A stretch of 64,000 nucleotides of DNA, from NCBI RefSeq assembly GCF_001447785.1, contig NW_015173707.1, positions 6,110-70,109 of the forward strand. Reading direction: 5' to 3'. Shown here in pieces: positions 3,401-62,257 of this stretch; the first letter of the stretch is position 1; the number at the start of each line of letters is the position of its first letter. The stretch comes from Gekko japonicus. Lineage: Eukaryota. The notes under the pieces are model-generated. The model worked only from the letters and a program-made list of their open reading frames with translations. It did not search any database and was not told where the DNA came from. A program made the translations under genes and the position numbers.

Positions 3401-3825
3401 TACCCGTTTTACAATGCTTTCAGTTAGCAGCGGGTGTGTATGCAGTATTATGCTAGTACAGTGATGCTGCATCCGACTGTAAACATTTTTTTGCAATCCA
3501 GTTCATAAGGGTAAGTGTGAGTATACATGGTATGCCTATTAGATGAAGTACAATCTTGTATTAATACTACTTTACCAAGATTTCATTGCATGATGAGAGT
3601 TTTTGCAAGTTGTTTGGTAAAATATTAGTACATTTCCTGCCCCAAAGTATATACATTTGAAGCCTTAGCTGTTGACTTGTTAGACTTTTAGCAAACTCCA
3701 GGATGTTTCTAATCTTTTTATATTCTGATGCTACATAAACCATCCTGGTGCTTCTTGGGTTTGACCCTAATTTAAGGATAAAACAAATGCTTATTGTGTT
3801 CTTTTCTACTTTGTGCTCCTTGCAG

Positions 3826-3938
3826 ACACCGAGGACATATTGTGCTTCTAATACAGAGGACTTGGAAGCTGTTATTCATCATGTACACAGCTTGTATTCC
3901 TCAGCTCCATTTATGGCAGCAGGTGTTTCTATGGGAGG
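3826..3938 (+). CDS. ABHD3: ABHD3 internal coding exon containing the nucleophile Ser motif
   Basis: ttgcag|ACACCG...ATGGGAGG|gtaagt, 113 nt, encoding TPRTYCASNTEDLEAVIHHVHSLYSSAPFMAAGVSMGG with the GxSxG motif of alpha/beta hydrolases. Confidence 0.95.
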
Positions 3939-5769
3939 GTAAGTAGTTATGTAACAGACATTCTGCTAGCGAAGATCTCCAGTTATTACGAATTTCCAAA
4001 AGCCGTAATGAAGGATTCTTCTTGTATACTGCAGACTCAGTGGAAAATGTACTGCCTTGTTTTGTGCCCTGGTTGTACATTTTCCTGCAACAATAAGAGG
4101 TATACAGTAGGCACAATTTGTTTTAAATTGTTCTGGGACAGGTGGCTCTTCTCCACAATCACTTGTATTTACCATTAATCGTAAGCAAGTTTTTGTGTTG
4201 CAGCCTGTTGAAGTGATCTAATACCTGCAATAAATGACTTTTGTTGGCAGAAGGTAGTTGAGGCTGAAAATGGGAGTCAGTTTAAATTGCAGCCCTCCAA
4301 CTGACGTGAAGTGCCATTGAGGGACATCCTGACCACCATTTTACGATCAGATTATCACAAAGCATCAGGTCAACCACATTGCAGGATTCTGACAGGAGAG
4401 ACTCTTATCTTAGTTTTTTGAATTAATTTTGTAGTAACAGTTGGTCTGCCAACTGTTTTCATAGGTTATAAGACTATGAGGGAGAGCTGTTTAGCTTTGT
4501 TTGTTAGTGAAGATGATCTACTGTCTGTTACTGTTTCCTTTATATTCTTTTGGGGGTTTGATATTGGAGCTGTGATTAAGAGACTTCCAAGGTACACACA
4601 GGTGCAAAAGCAATTTTTTTTTGTTTGATTTGGGGGGGAAATGTAAAAAGAAATAACAGCAGCAACCTTCTGTCTATCCACATTGGTCCTTGAACCAGCA
4701 AAACAGTATTTCACTTTCTCCTCTATTCATCTCGTCCTTATTGTATATATTGAATGGAACACATTCGTCCCTAACCATTTTTCATCTCTTCCTACCAGAG
4801 CTGTGCTACTATTCCTATATTCATTTTCACAACCATTTCATATATTACGAAGAGGTAAAATACAAGTTTGCTCAATTCAGTTTCCATTTTCCAGCATCCT
4901 AAGTGTGCACCTGAAACTTCAATGGGTGAAGTGCCCTCCAGAGGGGTGGAGGATAAAAGGTGCCACTTCATACAATGATATGACATATTTACTGAAGGAG
5001 CAAAGACTCGATCCATGTGATCATTTAATGGATTGCAAGTTGCAAGGTTATTAATGTCCAGAGGCTGTGGCTTCATGTACCTTAGGATATGCCAGTAACA
5101 AAAAAAAAATGGCACTGTATCAAAGAACATGATGTTATCCTGTGTCAGGGGCCTGAGCAAACCCCAGGTTCCTCAACTCTGAGGGTAGCCAGGGACCCAC
5201 CCTCTGTGTCCATGAGCCAAAGCAGCAACACATGTGGTGCCTTTCAGGCAAAGCCCACTGCTTCCCTGCTTGAGAGGGACTGGCCCTTTAACAGCCTACT
5301 GCGTGAGGAGCAGCTGGGATACAACCCTGAGGGGTGGGGAAACAAGGAGATGAGTTGCAGCTAGGATGTAGGGGTGACAACAGCTTCTTGCAGCAACTGC
5401 TCAGATCCCATGGAAGTTCCAGAGGGGTGGAGCCTCCAAAGATGTTGGCCCCACGATGAGCCAGGCCCTTCATAAGGCAGAGGAAGTAGGACAGGGAGGG
5501 CACACTATTGTTTCTGAGGCTGACGGGAGCAGGGTCAGGAGAGAGGTGAAGAACCTGGGTAATGGGAAAACTCCTTTCCTCTCAGTCCGAGGCCTGTAGG
5601 TGGCTACACAAGTGCTCCCTGCTGTTAAGGGACTGCCAGACTTCAGCAGGTCTTCTACACCCTGACTCTGCCATGGATTCTAGTCTCATAGGGTTGAGGT
5701 GCCACAGAAATATGCACCGATAAGCATGATGAAACATAATCTGAATCAATTGTTTTATCTTATTTGCAG

Positions 5770-5932
5770 CATGCTTCTTGTCAACTATTTGGGTAGCATT
5801 GGCACAGAAACACCACTGAATGCAGACAGCAGGATGGAATGATTTTGATTGTGTAGACTCACTGGAAAAACCTGTGAACTGGCTTCTCTTTAATTATTAT
5901 TTAACTAGCTGTCTACAGTCTTCAGTGATTAG
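5770..5932 (+). CDS. ABHD3: ABHD3 coding exon with an apparent 11-nt frameshifting deletion and in-frame TGA at 5840-5842
   Basis: ttgcag|C ATG CTT CTT GTC AAC TAT... encodes MLLVNYLGSIGTETPL. The conserved GWNDFDCVDSLEKPVNWLLFNYYLTSCLQSSV continues in another frame. The exon ends AG|gtgagt and is 163 nt between two phase-2 introns. Confidence 0.88.
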
Positions 5933-6600
5933 GTGAGTCAACCTCACATCAGGTTTAAAAGATCACAGCATGTTAGGATAAACAGCAAGTCTCTTGTAAT
6001 AAATGTTAAGGATGACCTGATTAAGTGAATAACCTTCCTTTGATGTTTGTAATACAGAAGTACCTGGCATAAAAATGTGTCGCATTTGATGGGCTTCTTT
6101 CAGTCTAAGTACAATGTATGCATTTGGTCAACCAGCATACACTATCAAGGGCTTCAACGTATAAATTGTGCATTCTTAAATAACAGCCTTCTCTTTCTTT
6201 GTGACCAAAAGTAAGATAATAGTTATAAGCATGAGCCATGGGCCAGACAGTGTCTTATAGCTACCTATAAGTTTGGGAAGCTTGGTGTCTACTTACCATA
6301 GTCAAAGCTGGCTGCAAGCCACATGAACATCCTTCCATATGTGTGGAAGCAGACATCACAGAGATCAGCCTGAGTTTAACCACATAAGTAAAGCCCTCAT
6401 TTTGGCTTTGCTCACCTGGTTACACTCAAGCTGACCTACCTGGTGCAACTTCACACATGGCTGTGTGCAGATGCCTCCATCTTTCAGGTTAATATGACCT
6501 GGGTTATAATCAGTTGTTTTATTCAAAGCGTGTATTTTTTATTATCTTTGTGGTATTCTGATCCAGTTTTAAGACTGCCCCCTTCTTTCATTTTTTATAG

Positions 6601-6649
6601 ACATCGGGAAATGTTTGAAAAGCTATTTAATATGAACCTTGTCATGAAG
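6601..6649 (+). CDS. ABHD3: ABHD3 coding exon
   Basis: ttatag|A CAT CGG GAA ATG...ATG AAG|gtatga, 49 nt, HREMFEKLFNMNLVMK. Confidence 0.92.
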
Positions 6650-6739
6650 GTATGAGAACTAACTGCATGTTTTGTATTTCATTTGCATTTTGTATTTTGG
6701 TTTTACTAGCTCTTACGGAAATTATTGTCTTGCATTCAG

Positions 6740-6905
6740 GCTAAGACCATCAGGGAATTTGATAAACAATTCACTTCTGTCATGTTTGGCTATCCTACAA
6801 TTGATGATTACTATTCAGATGCTAGTCCATTCCGTAGACTGAAGACAGTTGGAATTCCAGTGTTGTGCTTAAATTCGATGGATGACGTTTTCTCACCAAA
6901 TCATG
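6740..6905 (+). CDS. ABHD3: ABHD3 coding exon (catalytic Asp region)
   Basis: attcag|GCTAAG...CATG|gtaagg, 166 nt, AKTIREFDKQFTSVMFGYPTIDDYYSDASP...IPVLCLNSMDDVFSPNH. Confidence 0.95.
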
Positions 6906-8126
6906 GTAAGGCTTTTCCCCCTCCCATAATGTTTAAATACAAAAGTAGACAGCAGACATTTTGCTGTGAGACTGGAAGGACATGGTCTCTGAGGTTGTAG
7001 GTAAGAGCCTGCATGTAGGTCCAGCTCCAAATTTTGAGAGGATCTAGACAAGGTGACTTCCAGTGCTCGCTTATAAACATACCACCATGTCTCATTCTCT
7101 CTCAATCCATCTGCCTTCTTCACATACACCAATACCACCCTCCTCCGTCTACCTAGTTCCCTGGAGTTGGTGAAGCTAAAGGGAGGCAGAGAATCACTGT
7201 TTCATTCCTTCTCCGTGATCAAAGAATGACCAAGACTCTCAGAAATGTGTTAGGTTTCCCATTTTCTAAAGGGAGAGAGATCTAGTGGGAGGCGAGGAAT
7301 TGTAATGCAGCTCCTGCAGGTGAATATGGCTGTTTTGCTGCAGTCCCTTAACATCCCTTTGATCAGAAAATGCAGGACTATTTCAGAGGCTGAGTCCTGT
7401 GACATCACGGTCTCCTGGTAGGGGGAGTGACTGGAAGAGAATGAAATGCAGTTCTCATATGACTGAACTGTTGCTGCTCCTGTCAGAAAAGAGAGGCCCT
7501 TGCAATATCAAAGGGGCACCTGGGGCAAACTCCCATCCCTTAATGGACAAAGTATTACAGTTCAGTGCCAGGCCACCTGTTGGGCCTTGGGCTTCAGCAT
7601 GTGTCCTATCATGCCAGCCTCAATATTTGTCTTGCATACATGTATCCAAAAGAACTTTCCCCTTCACTTGCCACATAAACGTTGCCTTAGTGACATTTCA
7701 TGTTTGTTTAAGCAACTTTATGTTTGTTTAAGCAACTTCAACCCTTCCTGGAAAGTGGCAGAAGCCACTTCACTAAAAGAATATTTTGTCATATCTTTGA
7801 GTAATAGAAAATGAAAGAATCAGACATCTTGCAAGTCTGTAAAAGGTTGAGAACCAATATTGCATTAAAGTGCAGTGTAAATAAATGTAAATAGTTTAAA
7901 ATGTAACAGGTATTATACCCATAACCCTCTACAGCATGCTTAGGCAACTTTTTGACCCAAGGGCCAAAAGAATGGTGAGCTGGCAAATAAAATTTCAAGA
8001 ACTCTCTTAATAAAGCAGCATTCTGTACATATATTGCAGTTAGCTTTCACTAAGTTACAGGAAGCCTAATAATTCTGAGAGAGAACAACATTGGGAATGG
8101 CGACTTATACTTTCCTCTCCTTTTAG

Positions 8127-8305
8127 CCCTACCAGTGGAAATGGCGAAACAAAATCCAAACGTGGCTTTGGTTCTTACTTCCTGTGGAGGCCATATTGGT
8201 TTTCTGGAAGGATTGTGGCCAAGAAAATGCACGTACATGGACAGAGTCTTCAAGCAGTTTGTTCAAGCTGTGTTTGAGCATGGAAGCAAAATCCTTAATA
8301 TGTAG
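8127..8305 (+). CDS. ABHD3: ABHD3 last coding exon (catalytic His)
   Basis: ttttag|CC CTA CCA GTG..., LPVEMAKQNPNVALVLTSCGGHIGFLEGLWPRKCTYMDRVFKQFVQAVFEHGSKILNM*, with TAG at 8303-8305. Confidence 0.95.
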
Positions 8306-8931
8306 CAACTTAGCAGGACCATGATTGCACCACAGTAGCATTTTATGATCAGGGTATATAAACTTACTGCACACGATTCAGCAAATAAGCCTGCAAAATG
8401 GATGAAATCCATGATTATGAGCAAAAAGCATAGTTTTGCTTAGGTACTTTGCAATAATATTACTTTTGTATGTTTGCTTTAATATGCCTTATATAAATGA
8501 TATTAAATGAAAAGAGCACTTTGCACACATGAAATTGCACTTAACCAAAAAACATTAAGTAAACAGATGATTTCTCAGGTTTGTTTAAAAAAATAGACAA
8601 TTCAGAATTTAGGAATTTGTTCTGATGACTTGTTCATGTGCACTTAACATTAAAAAATGTAACTCACATATGGGTTTACTTTCGAGGGAAATGAGGAAAT
8701 GCAATAGAAACTTTTAAAAGTAATATAAAATAGTGGTTTAAAAGCCATTTTTAACTTTACTCATGGACTGCAATAGGATTGCTGACTGCACTTATTATAC
8801 CCTATGAGGATAATTCCAGTTTTGTTAATTTTGTCAAAGCCATATATATATGTCTTAATTTTTTAACATTGTTGCTTGTCATATAGTATTTATATTTCTA
8901 CCAGCTGTTTTATGTTGAAACACAGAAGGGA

Positions 8932-8937
8932 AATAAA
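8932..8937 (+). terminator. ABHD3: Probable ABHD3 polyadenylation signal
   Basis: AATAAA about 630 nt after the stop codon, followed by a T/GT-rich tract (tgtggcttggtctttctgtgtgt). Confidence 0.6.
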
Positions 8938-9162
8938 CTACATTTTAAAACCATCTTTCATTTAATCTTTGCATGTGGCTTGGTCTTTCTGTGTGTATTT
9001 CTATTTCATATAAAGAAAATGTTGCTTTTCATTAGATAGTTGTCAACAGGAACATTTAACTTCATGGTAAAACTGAAATGCTTTGAATAATACCATTGGA
9101 ATATCTGCAGTCTTACTCCCTATACAGCTGGAAATGGAACTACCTTTGCAGTGTTTTCAGTA

Positions 9163-9280
9163 TAGAATCATAGAGTTGGAAGGTACCTCCAGGGTCATCT
9201 AGTCCAACCCCCTGCACAATGTAGGAAATACCCCCCATACACACCCAGTGACCCTTGCTCCATGCCTAGAGGATGGCAAA
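9163..9280 (-). mobile_element. CR1 LINE 3'-end fragment
   Basis: tagaatcatagagttggaaggtacctccagggtcatctagtccaacc is the reverse complement of a CR1 (ATTCTATG)n tail and matches the copy near 47270. Confidence 0.75.
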
Positions 9281-9639
9281 TATATATATATTGTTTTTAA
9301 AATGCACATCTTTACTATTTCAACAGATTTTGAATAAATCCTTCAATAATTACCTCAAGAATCATCAAGGAACTAAAAGTGTTCTTTCTTCTCCTGTGTT
9401 CTTCCCTAATATCTAAGGCTGTTTGGGAGTAAGGAATGAGGTTTGCTTAGAATTGCTCCCTATGTGTGTCATGTTTTTAGAGTGCTTTTGAAATTCAATA
9501 TAAGCCAGACTGAGCTGGACTGTATTCTTAGCAGAGGTTCTCCCACCTAAAACGAATTCAGCAACAGGATTTAGCCTTGGAATGCACCTAACATAACTCA
9601 TGGGGTTGTAGCAAAGGTAAACCAGTAGGGCAGGATAAA

Positions 9640-9800
9640 GAGGAGGAGGAGGAGGAGATTGGATTTATACCCCGCCCTTCACTTGGAGTCTCAGAGCGGC
9701 TTACAAACTCCTTTCCCTTCCCCTCCCCACAACAGACACCCTGTGAGGTGGGTGGGGCTGAGAGAACTCTGACACAAACTGCTCTTTTTCAAGGACAGCT
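9640..9800 (-). mobile_element. Squam3-like SINE, 3' portion
   Basis: ggatttataccccgcccttcac...ctcctttcccttcccctccccacaacagacaccctgtgaggt is nearly identical to the copy at 53445-53720. Confidence 0.75.
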
Positions 9801-10474
9801 GTGATAGCAATGAAATATGTGAAGTAATCATAATTAAGAATACCTTTTAACATGTAAACCGAACCCTCTACCACACATATGGATTTAGGAAAAGGATTGC
9901 CTCGTGTAGCTGTCAGGTAAGCTTGCATGTAAAACCTCAGTTTCAGACATCGTGTCAACAACCATCTAGAAAAGAGGTATTTCCTGCAAAATGTCATATA
10001 CAAATAATATATAAATAATTGGGTTTGTATTTTTAAGTGGGATTAATGTATCGTGAAATGTCCTAATTCTCTATAGAAAATAAAATATACAGACAAAACT
10101 GGATATTCATGTAGTGTTTTGAAGTTTCTAAAATGAATTATAAATAATTGGATTTTTAAAAAATAGTGAACTTGCAGCTGCTGGAAGTGTCCATTCTGCC
10201 AAAACAGATTGTGCCTTCATGAAAAGTGCTTTGGAAGCAAATCCTTAAAAACAGAGTTGGATATAACTATTACCAAGAACACTCGAGAGAGAGAAATACC
10301 TCTAATATGGGATATCTCAAAATGTAGGTTACACAACTGAGTTATAAAACCAATATCTGATTCTAACAGGTTTCAGATGCAGGTTGCAAGTCTGTGTACA
10401 CCTTAAAAGATCTGCTTATATCTGAACAGAAAACCACTGTAGAGTTCTGCTGTAACATGTGCTTGTAGCCTGTG

Positions 10475-10578
10475 CTATGCATGTCCCCCCCCCCCAAGTA
10501 AGTGCCAGGGTCATGCCACATGAAAACCCTGCACTGTGCATGCCCCCCCCCCAGAAGTGCCAGGGTCATGCCACATGA
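10475..10578. repeat. Two-unit tandem repeat (~55 bp)
   Basis: tgcatg-poly(C)-aagtgccagggtcatgccacatga occurs twice. Confidence 0.8.
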
Positions 10579-12019
10579 GGACCATTTTTGCACTGCTGAA
10601 GGTGCAAGAGGAATCACAACGAATGAAAAACTTACTGTATGTCATCTCAGAAATAAATTTCCTCCAGTAGAGATCCTGCCCTCCTGCCTTTTTTCCCTTT
10701 GCAGCTTTGTTGTATCCTAATTCATTACTTCCATCTCCTGGCTGGCTGGCCATTTGTCTTGTGGCATTTAAGAATAAATGGTTAATTATCCACCTGGGGG
10801 GAGAGCTTAAGAAATGTTTAATTGTGCAAAATTCTAAAAAAAAACCTCCATAAAACCCAACTATTTATATGGTTACCAACTTGCCCGTGGATTTTGGGAA
10901 TTGTGGAATAATATCTCCAGACTCAGAGGTCGGTTCCCCTGCAGGAAATGTCAGCTTTGGAAGGCTGAATCTATAGTATCACATTTAATACTAGAAACTC
11001 GGGCAAAAGTCTTTGTGAGTTTTCAAATATTTCCCGGTAGGAAGATTAATTCAAAAACAATGAACGAGAGCAACTAACTGACGTCTGTTTTCCGCACTGC
11101 ACGGAGATCTTCGCTTTTTCTGCGTTTTACTCCTCGGAGGCCACCAGGGGCCATTACAACCCTGGAAGAACCAACAAGTAGCAAGGATAAGTTGCCGATG
11201 CAGGAAATACATACAAAATACGTCGCCGGAAGCTCCGAAGGGGAGGAACTGACTCCCACAAACATGACAGTTCAGGCGTCACCTGCCCTCGCTATGTGGG
11301 GTGGGAGGGAAACTGGTCCTCTGCTAAGAGGTATAAAAAACAAGCAGACCTCACGTCCGGTTCCCAACTGCAGTTCTTAAATTAGCCACAGTAACTGTAC
11401 AGATGTCTGCAGAGAACCCCAGATAAGTCCACAGAGGTGTAGTAGTGCTTTGAAACCGTCATGCCTCCATACCCCCGCTACCGTCCTAATGCTTGCTGGA
11501 GGAGCCTGCTGTCAAAACGGAGCTCTGTAATTTCCAAATGAAATGGTTGGACTTTAGAGAGCATTGCCAGAAAAAAAAAAGATGGAGAATTTAAATTTTT
11601 AAAATGGAACTTGTTGTCTGACTTAATTCCCAGTACTGTTATTTCCTCCAATAGACCAACACCTTCTAAAATTCATTTGGGTTTGCTTTTTCTCCTCCAT
11701 TTACTGGTGTTATCATTTTCTTGGACTAGCCCATTGAACGTTAATTAGATTTCATAAAAGAGCAATCCTAAACTCGTCTACCCAGAGAATCATACTCAGA
11801 TCACTTTTTAGTGGGGCTTATTCTAAGAAAAATATTTTTAGGGTTGCCCTATAAATCTGGGGCGCTCATTACACGCTAAGCAATTGTTTGCTTGTTTCCC
11901 ACCGCTCCATCCCGTGTGCATGAGAAAAACACACTGGCGCTTCATCCCCTGTCCTGAATCCAACCTACTTTGGTCTCGGTGCATCACAGCATCTGAGTTC
12001 CAGCTATCTCCATGAAGGA

Positions 12020-12195
12020 GGGGAAAGGTGGCCATTGTTAGCTCTACCAGGCCCTCATGTTTTAGAGCAGACTTGGGTGCTTTGTCCCCAATTTTCTTCC
12101 TTCCCTGCGGGGAAAGGGGGCCATTGTTAGCTCTACCGGGCCCTCATGTTTTAGAACATACTTGGGTGCTTTGCCCCCAATTTTCTTCCTTCCCC
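12020..12195. repeat. Two-unit tandem duplication (~89 bp)
   Basis: ggggaaagg.ggccattgttagctctacc.ggccctcatgttttaga...ccccaattttcttccttccc occurs twice with few mismatches. Confidence 0.9.
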
Positions 12196-12299
12196 ACATA
12201 GCTTGGCTTCCATGCTTTTGGGATGCTTTCAAACAGTTCAGCTAAAGAGGGCCTGGACTACTGCTACAGAAGAAGACCTAAGGAAATGCAACATCTCCA

Positions 12300-13630
12300 T
12301 TTGAATGAAGTTTGAGTCCAGTGGCATCTTTAAGACCAACAAAGTTTTATTCAAGGTATAAGCTTTTATGTGCACACACACTCCTTCAGGTACAATGAAA
12401 TGGAAATTAACAGTCTGTACATATAGGTAGAGGGTAAGCAGTAAATTAGCATGCAGCATAATGAAGATATTTAACAGATTCAAGGACCAAACAGGAATAA
12501 TAAGCTTAGTTTATACAGTCGGTTACCATTTGTTTGGGTTTAATTCTGGGGGGAAACATAGTGAAGGAAATGAATAAGTCAAAATTGGAGATTGATGGAC
12601 TGCTGAGAGTAATTAACTGAGAGTAATTAACTGAGTAATTAACTGAGACCCTGCCATTATGCTCCATCCATCTCCTCACAAGCATGGAGGCAACCTTACA
12701 GCATCTTCTTCTTTGAGGTGGGGTGACTGGCTGTGTAGAATTATCTCCCCTGTTCCCAGACCAGACAAATACATTCCAATCTACCATTCCAAATTACGTT
12801 ACATTCACCCCAGTATGTGTAAAAGAGAACTGTCATTATCCAGTAGAGGTTGTAAGTCGCTGATGATGCGTCAAACTGTTTTGAGTTGAGAGCCCTAGTG
12901 ACCACTAGTGGTGTTATATTATTGTCTCTTTGGGGCCTGTCTTGCAACAGGTTTTCTCTGGGTACCATTCTAGCTTTGTTAATCTGTTTCTTGAATTCAT
13001 CAGGTGGACTCTTTAGTTCTGAAAAGGTTTGCTGTAGATCCCTCAGGTGAGAGTCTCTGTCTGTAGGACTGGAGCAGATGCGGCTGTGGTGTAGAGCCTG
13101 GCTGTATACAATGGATCATTTAGTATGTTTAGGGTGGTGGCTGGAGGCATGTAGGTATATTTGTCAGTCAGTAGGTTTCCGGAATAAAGTGGTGTCTATG
13201 CGGTGGCTCAAGTGGTTAAGACGCTGAACTGCAGGCTGTGGAAGGTCGGTAGTTCAGCAGTTCAAGACCCGGGTGCCGCATGACGGAGTGAGCTCCCGTC
13301 TCTAGTTCCAGCTCCTGCCAACCTAGCAGTTCGAAAGCAAGAAATTGCAAGTAGATAAATAGGGACCACTTCAGTGGGAAGGTAACAGCGTTCTGTGCAC
13401 CTTGGTGTTTAGTCATGCCGGCCACATGACCACGGAAACGTCTTCGGACAGCACTGGCTCTTCGCCTTGGAAACGGAGATGAGCACCGCAACCCTAGAGT
13501 CGGATTAGACTGGCTTTTGAGCAAGGGGACCTTTACCTTTACTATGCATCCATTGTGTATTTTTACAGTAGTGTCCAGAAAACGTATTTCTTGCATAAAC
13601 TGGTTCATTGTCAGGTTGATGGTGGGGTTG
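12300..13630 (-). mobile_element. Decayed Penelope-like retroelement fragment, interrupted by a Sauria SINE
   Basis: Minus-strand RT C-terminal remnants (EIRFLDTTVKIHNGCI|DTTLFRKPTD..YLHASSHHPKHTK..IVYSQAL...NKARMVPRENLLQDRP..NITPLVVT). Its terminal region carries a hammerhead-like core at 12355-12394. Confidence 0.75.
13202..13541 (+). mobile_element. Near full-length Sauria SINE with target-site duplication CTATGC
   Basis: tRNA-like head ggtggctcaagtggttaag, body cctgccaacctagcagttcgaaagc, (ACCTTT)n tail. CTATGC lies at 13196-13201 and 13542-13547. Confidence 0.9.
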
Positions 13631-13739
13631 AAAACATCTCAATTTCTCGAACTTCAGCCTGCCATGTTTTTAAATGCACACAAACCTTGCCGGGGAAGAA
13701 GAAATTATCCTGATCAGGCTTCTTTTTTTCTTTGTAGAG

Positions 13740-14620
13740 TGCAGGGTACGCTTATGTCAACGCGCTGCCGAAACCTTTAAGGTTGCCTGTTTTGCTCTGG
13801 CTTCTACATCGAGCCTTGTTTATTTCCACCCACTTTTTACCACCACCACCCCGCGCATGGAAGCGCAGATCCGCAAAGCATCTAGAGATCTGGTTTTGAC
13901 TGTAGCTCTATGGACTGGTCAAAGCACCCGGATGTGAAGCGGCGTTTTAGTCGCTTCCGTCTTTGCTCGTCTCTGCGATGAGGCGCCGGCCGGGTGACAT
14001 GAGGAACCTGCGCGACTGACTCGGAGGCAACGGCGAGGGCCGCGCGCCGAAGTGATTTCGTTCCCACTCGCCCTGCCTGGTGCGGAAGCGGCTCGTGCTG
14101 TCAGAGGCTCGGTTTGCGGAGCCCCCCTTTCATAGAGGTAAATGCCAGTTGTGCAGCTTTCCTTCCTCCTGCGGACGGGAGCGGAAACAAACAAAAAAGT
14201 GCAAGAAATACCGCGGCTTGGCCTTTCCCCCTCGGCTTCTGTTCCCTCCCGGAACGGCTCGGCCTTCGGGACCCGGAGGGGGCAGGGTCCTCGATTCGAG
14301 GGTAGCGAAGTTGGCTTTGTTGAACGTGGGCAAGGAGATGGGGTTGGGTCGGCAGCCTGCCCACCTCTCCCCGTCCTACATTCCCTCAGTCTCCGCCGGT
14401 TCCTTCTCCCTGCCTCGCCGCCCTTCTTTTCCCAAAGTCCCGGCCTTGTTTTGTGGCGTCTGAAACGGAGGTGTGGTGTGAGGTAGTTTGATGTTGGGGG
14501 GCCTGATCCGATGAGTGGAATAGCCGCCTTTGTACGCATTGCTGCCCTGTCTTGCGGGAAGACCCCACACTTTATACGGAATTGCTCTGCGCGAACACTA
14601 ATACTCGATGCAGAATGTAA
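13740..14620 (+). promoter_or_regulatory. ESCO1: CpG island, ESCO1 promoter and probable non-coding first exon (candidate donor GAG|gtaaat at 14137/14138)
   Basis: High GC and CpG density about 2 kb upstream of the first coding exon, with several ETS-type cores (ccggatgt, cttccg, gcggaagc). The exon boundary is inferred. Confidence 0.75.
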
Positions 14621-26896: not shown

Positions 26897-29800
26897 GTAA
26901 GAAGACCTCATTTCTTTTATAAAACAGAGTATGTTATGTGGGGTTGCTGTATTTATTAATTAGAATACTTCTGGATGTTGATTATATTTCATTTAACAAA
27001 CATTTCTAAAAAGCTAAACAAGAGTCAGATCTGTTTAAAAATGTCTTTGGAACCTAGTCGGTTATGAATGCACTGTTTATGCATTTTTTACCTGTCTTGA
27101 TAGTTTTTTTTTTAAAGCTGTCTTACAGTATATAGCTTAATACTCAACATTTGACATAAAGTTGGACAGTGGTTTCTCTACAAAGCCATGAATGTTTTTT
27201 AATATGTTTGATCACTGTTTACATTTAAAATGTAAACTCAGAAATAAAATGGGGCACACTTTCAACATAATTTTAAAGACATTTGCAAATAAAACTGCTA
27301 ATTAAGAATATCAAGCTTTGAATTGTACAAGAGTTTTTATACTATACAAAGCTGATCTGCCCCTCTAGCTGAAGTAAGAATCAATGACATTAGTTTTCTT
27401 TATCACATGTTACCTTCCTTATTCTGCATTGGCATTGGTAAGACCTCCAGGAGAACTGAACTGAACTCATTAAGCCACTTCATTTGTGTACCACACAGAA
27501 ATTCCATCTTCAGTTCAAAACTACTGTAGAATTTCATGAGGTACTGTTCAAAATTCTGAGTATGTTTTTTAAAAGGCTCTCATGTGTTGCAACTTTTCCC
27601 CTTTTTAATTTGGCAGTCTGAGTACTAACCGCCATATTCCAAAATATCTTGTCATATATTGGTTACTTATACACAGTGCAGTCAACCTGGGTATTTTAAA
27701 GCAGGTTCTGAGCTTTTATTTTCCAAGATTCTTCTGAAAATATTTGTGTAGCTTGATGATCCAGTATTAGTAATTAAACTCTTCCATGACTGATCTAGTC
27801 CCCTGTGTAAATACAGAGTATTTTTAGCATGGGGGACTGAGGTAAAAAGGGCCTAAATTTGAGAGATTGAGAGTTCTGTTTCATTGTGCCCCTTATCTTT
27901 TCTTCTGATTTAATACTGACATTTATCTGCTTTTTAGCAGATGTTTGGCACTTTTAGCAGATGTTTGGCACCCTTCACAGTAATCCTTTCAACAGCCCTG
28001 TAAAGTAGGTTATTATTAAAACATATTGCAGGTACAGGGGGTTTGCATAAAACTTGCCTAAAATCATGGCTTTGGTAAGGTTTGAGTCAGAAAACTTCCA
28101 TCTTTAATATGAAGGATTAGAATTGGTAGAAGAAAGTGCCTGATACTCGAGTATGGGCAACAAAGAAATTCTTCATGGAAAACACTAGTTCTGTGTAAGT
28201 GGGAAAAGGTGATTTTTCTTCTTGTGTTTCTTTAGAGCTCCATTAGAATTGGCAAGCTTTGCTGTTTGCCTGAAGCAGTTGGTATCAGTGCATTTTTATA
28301 GAGCCATGGTGTGGGGATTGAATACCCACTCTCCCTTGTAATTTTAAAAGACCTTTTAAATACTTCACAGAATGAGAGAGAAAGTGTTGCACTGGCAAAC
28401 ATTGTATTTCATCTACATGTGGAGTAAACTAGGCACAACAGTGATTTTAACCTTTATTTCATTTATTTTTTATGTCACCTCAGAAGTTTAAATAGAGAAA
28501 AAGTGTTTAAAAAATTAAAATAAATTGGTACCTGGAGAGGAGGAGCAGAAGGGGTTCATCTGTTCAGAATCGCTTCATCTTGGTAGTTCTCCTTCCATCT
28601 GAACTTTATTCCCACTTCAGTTGTTGGCTATATTGGTGATCATGGACAGCCAGCAGCAGCACTGTTAACAAGATGCCCCCCCACTCAGTGTGCTTGGCAG
28701 GAGGTAGGGAAAAGCTATGGGAGCAGGTGTCAGAGCTGTGAGAAATGTTTTCCCCATTTTTCTTTGAGATGAAGGATTTTGTGCTTGGAAGTAAGGTATT
28801 CTTCAAATTTTATTTATTTATTCTTCAGATTTCTACCCTGCCCTCCCAGGTGAAGTCTTTCCATTTCAAACAGAATCCAGCGTTTTATTTTATCAGTGTT
28901 GTTTGCAATTAGAATAAGGCTGTGAAAGCAACAAGCAATCAAAGTGGGCATGGATTCACAGAAGCATAGTTAGTTTTCAGATTATATGATCTTTATGCAT
29001 CCATAGGGTTGCCTTTTATCCTGCGAGGGGCTCCTGGCTCCTCTTCTGGAGTGAGACCGTCACCGGTAGTGATGTCATCATACAAGGGCCGTTGCACTGC
29101 GACACTCTAGTGTTTGAGGCAAAAACTCAGTGGTAACCATAGAGTTGCTCCGTGAATGCTAGAGCATTGCTGCATGGCGGCTCTAGTGTGATGTCATTGC
29201 ATCAGCAGTGTCCCTGTGTGATGGTGCTGTTGGGGGGTGGGGCCTCCCCCACTGGCCAGCGGTGGATTGGGGCCCCTGAAATTGGGGGGTCCCCTGGCCC
29301 CACTGGGGGAATGGTAATCCTATGCACCCATCATGCTTGAAATATTAATTTGAACCTAAGAGTTTTAAAATCCTTGATTCAGTTTTTAACTGTCTAGTCC
29401 TGTGCGTGCTGAAAGTAAGCCATGTTGATTTCAGTAGGACTTAATCCCAAATCATATATGCATAGCTTTGCAGCCTTAGATTTTACAAATTCTGTCTTAG
29501 NNNNNNNNNNNNNNNNNNNNNNNNNNNNNNTAGAATATTTTAGAGAATTTAAGAAATACTTCTGGCTTCTGAAACTGCCTTCTGAATTGGTTGGGATAGA
29601 CATCCAAATGTTTTGATGAAATGTAACCTTGTTATGCTATCGCAAACACTTTAAAAAGACCTTTATCTGATTGGATGGTAGTATCCCTTCAGTGTCTTCT
29701 CTTGAAAATGAGTATTGAAACAGAATGTACTGCAGTCCATGAGCTATGAGATGAACTTCTTTTTTTAATCATAGGGACATCTAGGGACAGCATAGCTTGA

Positions 29801-31784: not shown

Positions 31785-34710
31785 CAGGGGTCATTTGGGG
31801 GGGACGCGGGGGGACGCGTCCCCCCGGGTTAGGGGCGGGGGCGGGGCACACAACGAAGCCCCGCCCCCTGTGAAACCAGAGGCACAACCAGCTAAGGAAG
31901 GGGGGAGGCAGCAAGAGCACTCAGAACTGAGAGCCGGACCCGGCGAACGCTCTCATGGAGGGACTGGGGCTCCTGCGGCGGGATAGGGCTCGCTCCCAGG
32001 CGGGTCCCAGTGGTGCCGGCTGGCGCGGCTAGGCTGGGGCGCTGATTCCTCTCCTCCGCCGCTCCGGCTCTGCTCAATACACCATGGCCGCCTCTTTCAG
32101 CCAATCCCAGCGCCAGAGCCATTCCCACACAGCGTGTAAAATGCTGCCACTGGTCTTGTACTGCATTTTATACAGTCTACCTGAAGAGACGGGGCGGAGA
32201 GAGAGCGGTACAAACATCACGCTCTAGAAAACCAGAATGGTTTTGTCCCCTTCGCCCGCCTGTACAAACCCTGGAAGTGTGGCTCCTCCCCGTCTCCCCA
32301 CCTCCCTGCCGGCGTTGCCCGGCTTTGGCGCTCTTGAACCTTCCTGGGTAAGCCCGTGTTTTGCCACTCCTCTCCCATCGTAGATTTGGTATCTTCTTCA
32401 TTTTCCTTTATCTGTATAGGGTCTTGAGGTGGATTCAGCTATGCTGTTGTCATGCAGAAATTAACACTGTCCTTTTGAGAACAGTGAGAGGATCTTGTGG
32501 AATGGGTTCCTTTATGAAGCCGGGTGGCTTGGTAGTGGAGGGCAAGTCTGTCTGCTGTGAGTGCTTTTTTTCCTGAGGAACCCCTGCTAAACTTTCAAAG
32601 AGTCCCAGGCATTGCCCATGTGGCTTCTTCCTCTCGCCCTACAAACTTGTCCCCACACGCCCCCAGGCAACCCCCACCCCCCAACTCCCTCGCTTATAGC
32701 ACATGAAGGCTCCAAATGGGGCGAGGAGGCAGTGACTCAAGAGACGGGAGGCGGCAAGGACGAGGGGTGCTGGACCGAGGCGCAACCCCTTCCCCGCAGA
32801 TCGCATCCTCGAGTGCGCTGCCGGAGAGCGGGCCTCGAGACGGCGCCGCCGCCACCAGGGTCCGCTGAATCGTCCCATTCAGGCAGCGGCGACACACCCC
32901 CTTTGCTCCGGGCGGGGCCAAACTGGCCCGCCTGGGCTGAGCGTCTCCACTGCCAAGTAGGGTGGACGGGGAGGAAGTGCTGGGAGAGACGCAGAAGGAG
33001 ACGGTTGGGCTGGAGGTCGGAGGGAGAGCCGACCAGGCGAGCGTTTCCTTAGACCCTCTAAAACACATTGTTGAGCGATTGCACAAACCACTCCCCAAGA
33101 ATCACACAGAAGCTTCCGTTTCAGAGTAGGCAGGGTAGGGAGGGCGAGCGGGGGATCTCGAGAGTCTTGTTGCCCTCCTCTGGCTCCCCCCCCCCGGTTT
33201 CGTTTTTCCAAGCCTTAATTCCTTCCTCTGTAGGATGTCAATGCTGGATGAATTTTTCCTCTCCTGTAGTGCTGGTAATTGGGCTGTCCCATGAAGTTGA
33301 AAGAGGATAGATTCAGGACAGTCAGGTTTGCTGCGCAAAGTGTTAATTGTGGAATTTTTTGAGCACCTGTGTATTAAGTGCTCTGAAGTCACTTTTGACT
33401 TATGGTGACTAGTGTTCCCTCTAAGCTGAGTTAGTGTGACCTAGCTGACAGTTTTTTAGCCTCTGGCTCACACTTTTGTCTCAGAAAGGATGGCTCCAAA
33501 GCAAACTGATTTATGCAGTAGCCAAATTGCTAGCTCATAGTTTTAATGCCAGTAGCTCACGAANNNNNNNNNNNNNNNNNNNNNNNNNNNNNNNNNNNNN
33601 NNNNNNNNNNNNNNNNNNNNNNNNNNNNNNNNNNNNNNNNNNNNNNNNNNNNNNNNNNNNNNNNNNNNNNNNNNNNNNNNNNNNNNNNNNNNNNNNNNNN
33701 NNNNNNNNNNNNNNNNNNNNNNNNNNNNNNNNNNNNNNNNNNNNNNNNNNNNNNNNNNNNNNNNNNNNNNNNNNNNNNNNNNNNNNNNNNNNNNNNNNNN
33801 NNNNNNNNNNNNNNNNNNNNNNNNNNNNNNNNNNNNNNNNNNNNNNNNNNNNNNNNNNNNNNNNNNNNNNNNNNNNNNNNNNNNNNNNNNNNNNNNNNNN
33901 NNNNNNNNNNNNNNNNNNNNNNNNNNNNNNNNNNNNNNNNNNNNNNNNNNNNNNNNNNNNNNNNNNNNNNNNNNNNNNNNNNNNNNNNNNNNNNNNNNNN
34001 NNNNNNNNNNNNNNNNNNNNNNNNNNNNNNNNNNNNNNNNNNNNNNNNNNNNNNNNNNNNNNNNNNNNNNNNNNNNNNNNNNNNNNNNNNNNNNNNNNNN
34101 NNNNNNNNNNNNNNNNNNNNNNNNNNNNNNNNNNNNNNNNNNNNNNNNNNNNNNNNNNNNNNNNNNNNNNNNNNNNNNNNNNNNNNNNNNNNNNNNNNNN
34201 NNNNNNNNNNNNNNNNNNNNNNNNNNNNNNNNNNNNNNNNNNNNNNNNNNNNNNNNNNNNNNNNNNNNNNNNNNNNNNNNNNNNNNNNNNNNNNNNNNNN
34301 NNNNNNNNNNNNNNNNNNNNNNNNNNNNNNNNNNNNNNNNNNNNNNNNNNNNNNNNNNNNNNNNNNNNNNNNNNNNNNNNNNNNNNNNNNGGCCCTCATT
34401 CAGCTAGGAGGAGGCAGGAGAAGAGGGAGGGTACATTGCTTCCTCCCTGCCTCTCTCCCCCCCTGCCTGCCTGGGGCCAGGGAGGGCCTTCGCGGGGCTT
34501 CCTTGCACTCCCGCCGGCCTTGCAGGTCCACCGCCGGGCCCCTCATGGGGCTCGGCAGTGGAGCTGCAAGGCCGGCAGTGGCGGCCGGAACCGTTGGGGG
34601 CGGGGTGTGTGGCCTTATGACACACTTCCGGTGATGTCAGGGGGTGTGGCATATGCTAATGAGTTATGCTAATGAGTTCCCCTAGCTCTTTTTTTACGAA
34701 ATGACCCCTG
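31785..34710. mobile_element. Non-autonomous hAT-type DNA transposon (~2.9 kb including an N gap) with GC-rich interior
   Basis: Terminal inverted repeats CAGGGGTCATTT (31785-31796) and AAATGACCCCTG (34699-34710). Perfect 8-bp TSD GGGTTAGC at 31777-31784 and 34711-34718. No transposase in the sequenced part. Confidence 0.85.
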
Positions 34711-49336: not shown

Positions 49337-50450
49337 CTGGTCAGGGTCTTCTCCAGTGATTGCTCCCTTCTCATTTGGTGGCCAAAGTATTTGAGCTTCA
49401 GCTTCAGTATCTGGCCTTCCAGGGAACAGTCAGGGTTGATTTCTTTTAGGNNNNNNNNNNNNNNNNNNNNNNNNNNNNNNNNNNNNNNNNNNNNNNNNNN
49501 NNNNNNNNNNNNNNNNNNNNNNNNNNNNNNNNNNNNNNNNNNNNNNNNNNNNNNNNNNNNNNNNNNNNNNNNNNNNNNNNNNNNNNNNNNNNNNNNNNNN
49601 NNNNNNNNNNNNNNNNNNNNNNNNNNNNNNNNNNNNNNNNNNNNNNNNNNNNNNNNNNNNNNNNNNNNNNNNNNNNNNNNNNNNNNNNNNNNNNNNNNNN
49701 NNNNNNNNNNNNNNNNNNNNNNNNNNNNNNNNNNNNNNNNNNNNNNNNNNNNNNNNNNNCAATATTGTTCTTTGCAGCATTGGACTTTCCTTTCACCATC
49801 AGACACATCCACAGCTGAGCATTCTTTTGGCTTTGGCCCAGCAGCTTCACTCTTTCTGGGGTTACTTGTACTTGCCCTCTGCTCTTTCCCAGTAGCATAT
49901 TGGACACCTTCTGTCCTGAGAGGCTCATCTTCCGGCATCATATCTTTTAGCCTTTTGTTCCTATCCATGGGGTTTTCTTGGCAAAGATACTGGAATGGGT
50001 TGCCATTTCCTTCTCCAGTGGATCACATTTTGTCTGAGTTCTCCACTGTGGCCTGTCAGTCCTGGGTGGTCCTCCACGGCATAGCCCAGAGCCTCATCAA
50101 ACCACGCAAGTGTCCGCTATGCTGCCATGGGGGTTGGGGAGTTAATTCTGTGTCTTGGTAATTCCTATTGCATTCCTCTCCCTGCTGTTCCCAGCTTTAG
50201 CCACCTAACGGTTTCCTAACTTATCCCACGTGCGGGAGGGTACCTAATTGGCCCATGCCATGGGGGGGGTGCATACGAATACCCTATATCCTATTAGGCT
50301 CTATTGGATGCCACCATTCTTAACAGTGCCTGTGTTACTGCATCTATAGCTTTGCAATAAAAGTATAACCGTTCCTGAATGTGTGTACTTCGTTGTTAGC
50401 TGTGGGCTCTGACAGCAAGCCCCCTCGCCACATCAAGGCAGCGATCCATG
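49337..50450 (-). mobile_element. BovB/RTE LINE fragments spanning an N gap, interrupted by a solo LTR
   Basis: Minus-strand LKEINPDCSLEGQILKLKLKYFGHQMRREQSLEKTL (RTE C-terminus) and GVQYATGKEQR...GERKVQCCKEQY (BovB 5' region), plus gcaaagatactggaatgggttgccatttccttctcca. Confidence 0.85.
50111..50414 (+). mobile_element. Solo LTR (304 bp) with 5-bp TSD
   Basis: TGTC...GACA termini, GCAAG at 50106-50110 and 50415-50419, internal AATAAA near 50356. BovB sequence resumes after it. Confidence 0.8.
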
Positions 50451-59975: not shown

Positions 59976-62257
59976 GTTTGTATTTTCCCACATTTCCACC
60001 ATACATGTATAAAGGTGCCGACATTGTTCTTACATTTCCAACAATTCTTGTTAGCCTTTCCATAACACTTTGATATCTTATCTGGTGTCCAGTACCACCT
60101 ATGGAACATCTTCAAAATATTTTCTTTATATGGAATTGCTCTCATCATTTTACTGTATTCCATATTTTAGACCATTGTTCTATTTCTATGAGATGCCCCA
60201 AATCCCTCATCCATGATATCATTGCTCCTTTTACGGTCTTGTCTATTAAGTAATCAGCTAACAAGGAGTTGTATAGTTTTTGTATTAACTTATCAGTTGA
60301 GGAGAGCCAAATCTTGTCTAATTCATTGTTATTATCATAAAATCCTATTTTTTATCCCTATTAAATCTTGACGTTAATTGTAAAGTATCCCACCATGTAA
60401 GTTTTATATTTTGTTTTTCTAATTCTTTATCGGATTTTAGTTTATTATCCTTATTTAACAAATCATTATATGTTATTTTCTTATATTTGTCTATCAGAGT
60501 CTGCTTTGTGTTAGCCTCTATGGGGGCCACCCATTTTGGTATTTTAGTATACAAATTTTTTCTGATTTCTTTCCATATTTTCATTAGCGATCTTCTTAAT
60601 GTGTGTGTATCAAAAGTTTTTCTCGTTTTCTCTTCATCATACCACACATATTTGTGCCACTCCATCATTAGGTTAAATCCTTCTAAATTCAATAGTCTAG
60701 AGTTTTCCAGGAGTATCCATTCTCTTATCCATGTCAACGCAGCTGCTTTGTAATACATTTCCCAACTGGGGAGACCAAAGCCCCCTCTTTCCTTTTTATC
60801 CTGCATAACTTTTCGATTAATTCTTGCTTTTTTTACTGTCCCATATAAATTTGCTACAGATTCTTTCCAGTTCTTGTAAATAAGTGTTTTTTCTTAATAT
60901 TGGTAGATTTTGTGCCAAGAACAAAATCCTTGGCAACACATTCATTTTTATTATTGCTATTTTCCCCATAAATGAANNNNNNNNNNNNNNNNNNNNNNNN
61001 NNNNNNNNNNNNNNNNNNNNNNNNNNNNNNNNNNNNNNNNNNNNNNNNNNNNNNNNNNNNNNNNNNNNNNNNNNNNNNNNNNNNNNNNNNNNNNNNNNNN
61101 NNNNNNNNNNNNNNNNNNNNNNNNNNNNNNNNNNNNNNNNNNNNNNNNNNNNNNNNNNNNNNNNNNNNNNNNNNNNNNNNNNNNNNNNNNNNNNNNNNNN
61201 NNNNNNNNNNNNNNNNNNNNNNNNNNNNNNNNNNNNNNNNNNNNNNNNNNNNNNNNNNNNNNNNNNNNNNNNNNNNNNNNNNNNNNNNNNNNNNNNNNNN
61301 NNNNNNNNNNNNNNNNNNNNNNNNNNNNNNNNNNNNNNNNNNNNNNNNNNNNNNNNNNNNNNNNNNNNNNNNNNNNNNNNNNNNNNNNNNNNNNNNNNNN
61401 NNNNNNNNNNNNNNNNNNNNNNNNNNNNNNNNNNNNNNNNNNNNNNNNNNNNNNNNNNNNNNNNNNNNNNNNNNNNNCATATTACCAGTACCTCATGATA
61501 TGTTCCCTTATCAGAATGGAAGGAAGTGTAAAATTATTAAATTCTAAGTTGAGGAAAGCTACAACACACAGTTAGAAGGAACACATTTTCTTTTTCATTC
61601 CATGTTGAAAGTAATAGGTCAGAAGCAAATTGTCTTAAACAGGTATGCCCTTAACACTTAGCTGCAGCAATTAAATTAATCGCTCACCAATTAATCACCA
61701 AAATCTTTAGTTGACTGATCTACCAATTAAAGTTTGGAGCCCTATTTCATAATGTACTGTAATAACTGTTTTGCTGTCAGATGAGGACACATTAAGCACA
61801 TACAAAGCATCAGATTTAAATAACACTGTACTGGACATTTAATCTCCATACTGCAAAAAGCAGATACAAGGAAAACTGTACAGTAAATTAAGTAGTACAG
61901 TATTTACTCAAAGGTAGGCAACCCTGAAGGTAAGACATCCCTCCCCCTTTTTTTAACTGGACATAACTGTAACTTGTATGAAAATGTAAGATGTCCCATA
62001 TACATGACTTTCTTCTGAGTAGACCCACTTCGTCTTGCTCCCTCAAGTCTGTCTTAGCCTAACCTAATTCACAGAGATGGAGTGCGGATAAAATGGAAGG
62101 GGGCAGAGAACCATGTAAACCTCCCTGAGTGCCTTGAAGAAATGGCAGGATAAAAAATGTAGAGAGATCCTGACCAATTTGTCTGAACGTCTCACTCTCT
62201 TTCCTCTCCCCTAAAAACAAGAGAAAAGCCTGCATTCTGGCCTCTCATTTTGCCTCA

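Follow-up and report, generated by a model that had tools for sequence, protein, structure and literature searches.

The ABHD3 gene of Gekko japonicus raises the question of whether the broken reading frame of its exon 6 belongs to the species, to one animal or to the genome assembly. In the window (the whole 64,000-nt stretch of DNA that was analysed), exon 6 as assembled (5770..5932, + strand) is 163 nt long, bounded by an acceptor AG at 5768-5769 and a donor GT at 5933-5934, and both of its ends are confirmed by RNA joints (3938/5770 and 5932/6601). Translation in the acceptor frame gives MLLVNYLGSIGTETPLNADSRME followed by a premature stop, the TGA at 5840-5842 (+ strand). The frame shift lies at 5825/5826, and the conserved second half of the exon, GWN..SLEKPVNWLLFNYYLT, sits in a different frame from that of the acceptor. 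The interval from the PL to the GW codons measures 13 nt in the window (5819-5831). The SMGG-to-GW interval is 24 residues in 62/62 pattern-matched homologues (those matching the motif pattern among 124 proteins, the remainder being fragments, other isoforms or non-matching), so that the orthologous exon 6 has 174 nt. The 163-nt exon with 11 nt missing, as described in the original prediction, is therefore confirmed by splice sites, RNA joints and homologues, and translation of the window agrees with it on the premature TGA and on the displaced conserved half.

Beside the 11-nt loss we found a second change, absent from the original prediction. The letter A5842 makes GWN-V-F into GWN-D-F in the true frame (D for V at residue 246), and the residue encoded at this codon is V, T, A or I in the homologues and D in 0/62. 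The premature TGA at 5840 depends on A5842; with a T at this position, the stop in the shifted frame would come two codons further on. The splice-site scan around exon 6 revealed no frame-rescuing AG or GT in the range scanned, bar one AG which leaves an exon of 24 nt, and this bears out the earlier statement that the nearby AG dinucleotides do not restore the frame. There was no N gap near the lesion, the four N gaps of the window being located at 29501-29530, 33564-34390, 49451-49759 and 60977-61477. A chimera with another locus was ruled out, the 24-nt lesion sequence being found a single time in the genome assembly (G000) with up to 2 mismatches allowed.

The other ABHD3 exons of the window, all on the + strand, are exon 5 (3826..3938, 113 nt), with the nucleophile motif GVSMGG and its Ser codon at 3928-3930, exon 7 (6601..6649, 49 nt), which is intact, exon 8 (6740..6905, 166 nt), also intact, with the catalytic Asp codon at 6884-6886 and a synonymous C/T at 6886 in run X23, and the coding part of exon 9 (8127..8305), with the catalytic His at 8192-8194 and the normal stop TAG at 8303-8305. 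Exon 5 showed 88-93% identity to gecko ABHD3 by tblastn, and its joint to 5770 was present in runs X3, X4, X22 and X23. With exon 8 as the query, the top named matches were gecko ABHD3 at 96-98%. Exons 1-3 were located elsewhere, on scaffolds C10098 and C9249; together with C13997, the gene is split over three scaffolds. No match to the small exon 4 turned up in the stretches searched, and a gap of 4,383 N (L002 1727-6109) situated directly upstream of the window probably hides it. Besides exon 6, the 7 other exons located are all open and carry no further lesion, in line with the original description of intact flanking exons, and Ser215, Asp341 and His370 are present in the window exons. We take the triad roles of these three residues from their motifs, as established knowledge, and an alignment to a bacterial haloperoxidase-type hydrolase supports the assignment. 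The PF00561 (Abhydrolase_1) family was above the cut-off for the orthologues P0123 and P0122, and no family was assigned to the two single exons of the window that were scanned. The product of the intact gene would be a normal alpha/beta-hydrolase of 406 amino acids with the Ser215-Asp341-His370 triad.

One copy of ABHD3 was found in the genome assembly (one DNA match and one exon set, these counts being lower bounds), and no second contig across exon 6 was listed in X1 or X2. A processed or duplicated pseudogene standing beside a working copy was not encountered, no second intact ABHD3 having been found in the assembly, where the counts are likewise lower bounds. A paralogue, only 43-58% identical to ABHD3 (44-60% to that of geckos), is located at G000:C8944:1792064-1799846; it has introns and a full-length counterpart of exon 6, carries the motifs GISLGG, Asp and GGH, and is probably ABHD1 (a putative name). 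On the same strand as ABHD3 and directly after it (window 8900-14000) comes ESCO1, at 16285-37438, with 9 coding exons that are all open in comparison with three gecko orthologues. SNRPD1, which we take to lie between ABHD3 and ESCO1 in human, was not seen between them here, and 0/21 LSM-family matches (a lower bound) were on this scaffold. In a rattlesnake, ABHD3 and ESCO1 bear consecutive locus tags.

The RNA-like contigs of X3 and X4 showed two upstream partners for exon 5 at 3823-3826, the end of exon 4 and the end of exon 3 (IQQSKELGY). These two partners point to an isoform that skips exon 4 (a predicted 46 nt) with a shift of frame, and this isoform is likely a target of decay. Rescue of the lesion by such a skip was considered as well: the predicted loss of 46 nt and the 11-nt loss add up to a number divisible by 3, but in that frame a stop TGA at 5817-5819 precedes the lesion.

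We examined whether the lesion is carried by other sequence runs of the species. The run search listed 24 runs, 22 of them under one organism label, and neither the window's own haplotype nor a run of the assembled animal was found among these 24, for which the highest word share was 0.83. This value, reached by X1 and X2, is that computed without the words of the lesion (0.832), compared to 0.902 with them. Eight of these 24 public runs were aligned to positions 3500-9100 and four of them span the lesion: X1 and X2, which are DNA-like (study P1), X3 (study P2) and X4 (study P3), the last two as spliced RNA-like contigs, with the proviso that contigs show majority paths and drop minority alleles. 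The four other runs are uninformative on the allele, X17 and X21 being without coverage of exon 6, and X22 and X23 without a read across the lesion (in X23, one read reached 5825 and none was present at 5826). The raw RNA runs X21-X23 were sampled at 3-12% each, and 8, 11 and 18 reads were aligned, respectively.

All four spanning runs, from three studies, exhibited 11 extra letters at 5825/5826 and a T for A at 5842. The differing placements of the 11 letters in X1 and in X2 yield the same sequence. Compared with contigs X1-X4, the assembly thus has, at 5825..5827 (+ strand), a net loss of 11 nt that is present in it only, in which 12 letters of the run allele become a single A or, equivalently written, 11 letters are lost together with a T>A. 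In these runs the codon at 5842 is a V codon, exon 6 is 174 nt long and without a stop, and it reads NAAAIFSAGWNVF across the site, with 55/57 residues identical to Gekko kuhli ABHD3. X3 and X4 show all four joints between exons 5 and 9, and raw reads of X22 or X23 confirm three. Among the joints listed for the 8 runs, none bypasses exon 6, and exon-6 skipping was rejected as an explanation on this ground. ABHD3 in this gecko is intact, transcribed and normally spliced. The 174-nt exon that the original prediction proposed to look for in reads or cDNA was seen in 4/4 spanning runs of other individuals, the chromosomes of the assembled animal excepted. A named intact ABHD3 protein of Gekko japonicus was not found among 173 matches or 7 clusters.

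The variable sites of the region indicate how the window relates to these runs. We tabulated 31 of them, a count that excludes three rows derived from repeats, the variant at 6886 seen in X23 only, and four indels in introns or UTR. The window allele was present in at least one run at 27/31 sites, from which we conclude that the window and the runs represent one gene pool; two of the 31 sites (6337 and 7690) were covered only by X1 and X2. Only two sites were contradicted by all four runs, the indel (5826) and position 5842, which are 16 nt apart. Were they independent private changes, they would come to lie so close together with a probability of 0.006-0.03, so that the pair is best read as a single event, and the data point to one complex event that this assembly alone has. 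The other coding variants among the runs are two synonymous changes and a common E/K change, the latter due to a G/A polymorphism at 5807 (+ strand) with G in X1 and X2 and A in X3, X4 and X23, and with E in 23/62 and K in 18/62 homologues. One X3 contig showed a 25-nt intronic deletion (4440-4464) relative to the window, an ordinary indel polymorphism.

The protein encoded by the window was compared with those of relatives. The closest named one is Gekko kuhli KAL8182253.1, with 97.7% identity (213/218 residues) over the exons found. Over 382 mapped residues, the identity was 94.2% with Heteronotia binoei XP_060099893.1, 93.2% with Euleptes europaea XP_056710365.1 and 91.4% with Paroedura picta XP_077208755.1. 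Relative-rate tests on the protein gave 0/15 significant results, with a highest chi-square of 3.0.

The original prediction had left three options, namely pseudogenisation in the species, a null allele of the sequenced animal and an assembly error. A recent pseudogenisation of ABHD3, fixed in the species or in the source population of the genome, is very improbable. In its favour one can count the presence of the frameshift in the reference and the comparison with G. kuhli over 218 residues, in which the window has 3 specific changes versus 0, one of them the private D, a difference that is not significant. Against this, 4/4 spanning runs that bear the same organism label have an intact exon and share the other alleles of the window, spliced ABHD3 mRNA is present, and the 8 located exons showed no further lesion, the remaining coding variants being the synonymous and E/K changes described above. 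With the lesion in 0/4 spanning runs, the 7 other exons open and no significant rate test, a unitary pseudogene is refuted for the species.

The 11-nt frameshift and the T>A situated 16 nt away are, in our judgement and not by computation, probably a local error of this one assembly, which is the option of the original prediction that we favour. The assembly is fragmented into 191,500 contigs, with ABHD3 distributed over three scaffolds and the gap of 4,383 N immediately before the window, and independent data from the species contradict the reference at the lesion yet share its other alleles. The indel and the change at 5842 may have arisen together during consensus building or gap closing, possibly triggered by a contig break at the polymorphic position 5807, 18 nt to the left of the lesion, or by a 10-nt palindrome that has the left breakpoint as its centre. 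However, the flanks of the lesion look accurate, the letters around the site being free of N and all 9 ESCO1 coding exons open, and a breakpoint centred on a palindrome, together with a 14-nt match upstream, would fit real mutagenesis equally well. The runs that contradict it come from individuals other than the assembled animal, and the lesion could also be a real and rare null allele, which the sequenced animal most likely carried in heterozygous form. It would have been produced at the short palindrome by a single complex repair event, in which 1 letter took the place of 12 and a base 16 nt off was substituted. We hold this reading to be unlikely but worth weighing. Some private variants are to be expected in any animal, and genuine DNA repair can leave an indel together with a substitution close by. 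The accurate flanking sequence, in which the other alleles are common to other individuals, is consistent with a null allele, and so is the palindrome, since only 1 such was met in 2,574 nt of other exons. The four spanning runs bound the frequency of the allele loosely (95% upper bound of 0.63-0.75 under a simple model), minority alleles are dropped by contigs, and a null transcript would be hidden in RNA by decay. The paralogue on C8944 with triad motifs, and the dispensability of Abhd3 for survival in mice (PMC11358025), also count in favour of such an allele.

What speaks against this null allele is that it was seen in 0/4 spanning runs and that it needs at least 3 elementary edits within 28 nt. 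A possible template for the substitution was considered in the intron before exon 5, where a 14-mer at 2837-2850, 3 kb upstream, equals 5830-5843 including A5842; such a match was present in 0/76 control tiles, a rough control, because the position of the tile borders kept the lesion's own tile from scoring. This 14-mer accounts for the substitution only and not for the deletion, and it lies in a repeat for which about 2,300 candidates exist; of the copies viewed, 1/10, namely itself, has the full 14-mer. Templating from the intronic repeat at 2837, which explains at most one base and whose full match is absent from 9/10 copies viewed, was set aside as a weak lead. The repeat itself, partly located at 2780-2920, is of high copy number, with 2,305 candidates and 81-85% identity among the best. 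In its most specific form, a natural ABHD3 knockout allele segregating at low frequency, created in one step by repair at the 10-nt palindrome with a base copied from the intronic repeat 3 kb away, the proposal appears doubtful. Were the null allele real, its mRNA would be removed by nonsense-mediated decay, which follows a 50-55-nt rule, the stop being 90 nt before the next joint with three joints downstream. Its protein, if any, would have 241 amino acids with the Ser and without the Asp or the His, as the original prediction also has it for the truncated product.

The frameshift is present in the letters of the window, yet it is no property of the species: likely it is an assembly error, and possibly a private null allele. 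The correction matters because a comparative screen relying on this assembly would mistakenly count ABHD3 among the lost genes of this gecko. For lizards, the literature searched (mostly papers outside subscription, without their supplements) gave no mention of a loss of ABHD3. Should the allele be real, it would join the numerous rare loss-of-function variants that an outbred vertebrate is expected to carry, and its use for lipid biology would be modest, because homozygous Abhd3-null mice survive to phenotyping, with elevated C14 phospholipids and a dilated-heart phenotype (PMC11358025). A true natural knockout would offer a reptile model for the loss of medium-chain phospholipid turnover.

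In mammals, ABHD3 is a serine hydrolase whose substrates are phosphatidylcholines with medium (C14) or oxidatively truncated chains (PMC8389839, PMC5701053). The intact gecko enzyme would, by transfer through orthology, be expected to hydrolyse medium-chain and oxidatively truncated phospholipids as in mammals. The ABHD3 orthologues of geckos have the same triad and the same exon 6 length as the run allele, and only the assembled exon 6 of the window is 11 nt short with D for V at residue 246. Polymorphic pseudogenes, or segregating loss-of-function alleles, are a described type (PMC11576641), and they correspond to the reading of the lesion as a null allele unfixed in the species; unlike in those cases, no second carrier was found here in 4 spanning runs (majority contigs, with X21-X23 having no raw read across the site). 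For the assembly error that we favour, false frameshifts in older or draft assemblies are documented in PMC9516821; that paper also gives Illumina-based assemblies far fewer frameshift errors than Sanger-based ones, a point that counts against the error. The cases presented there are read-confirmed errors with indels <10 bp and a bias to GC-rich 5' exons, whereas the ABHD3 indel has 11 nt, lies in an internal exon of ordinary GC and is contradicted by data from other individuals and not from the same animal. It resembles the false frameshifts described there in that a frameshift in one reference is unsupported by the reads of the species, in a gene that is split over scaffolds with a gap.
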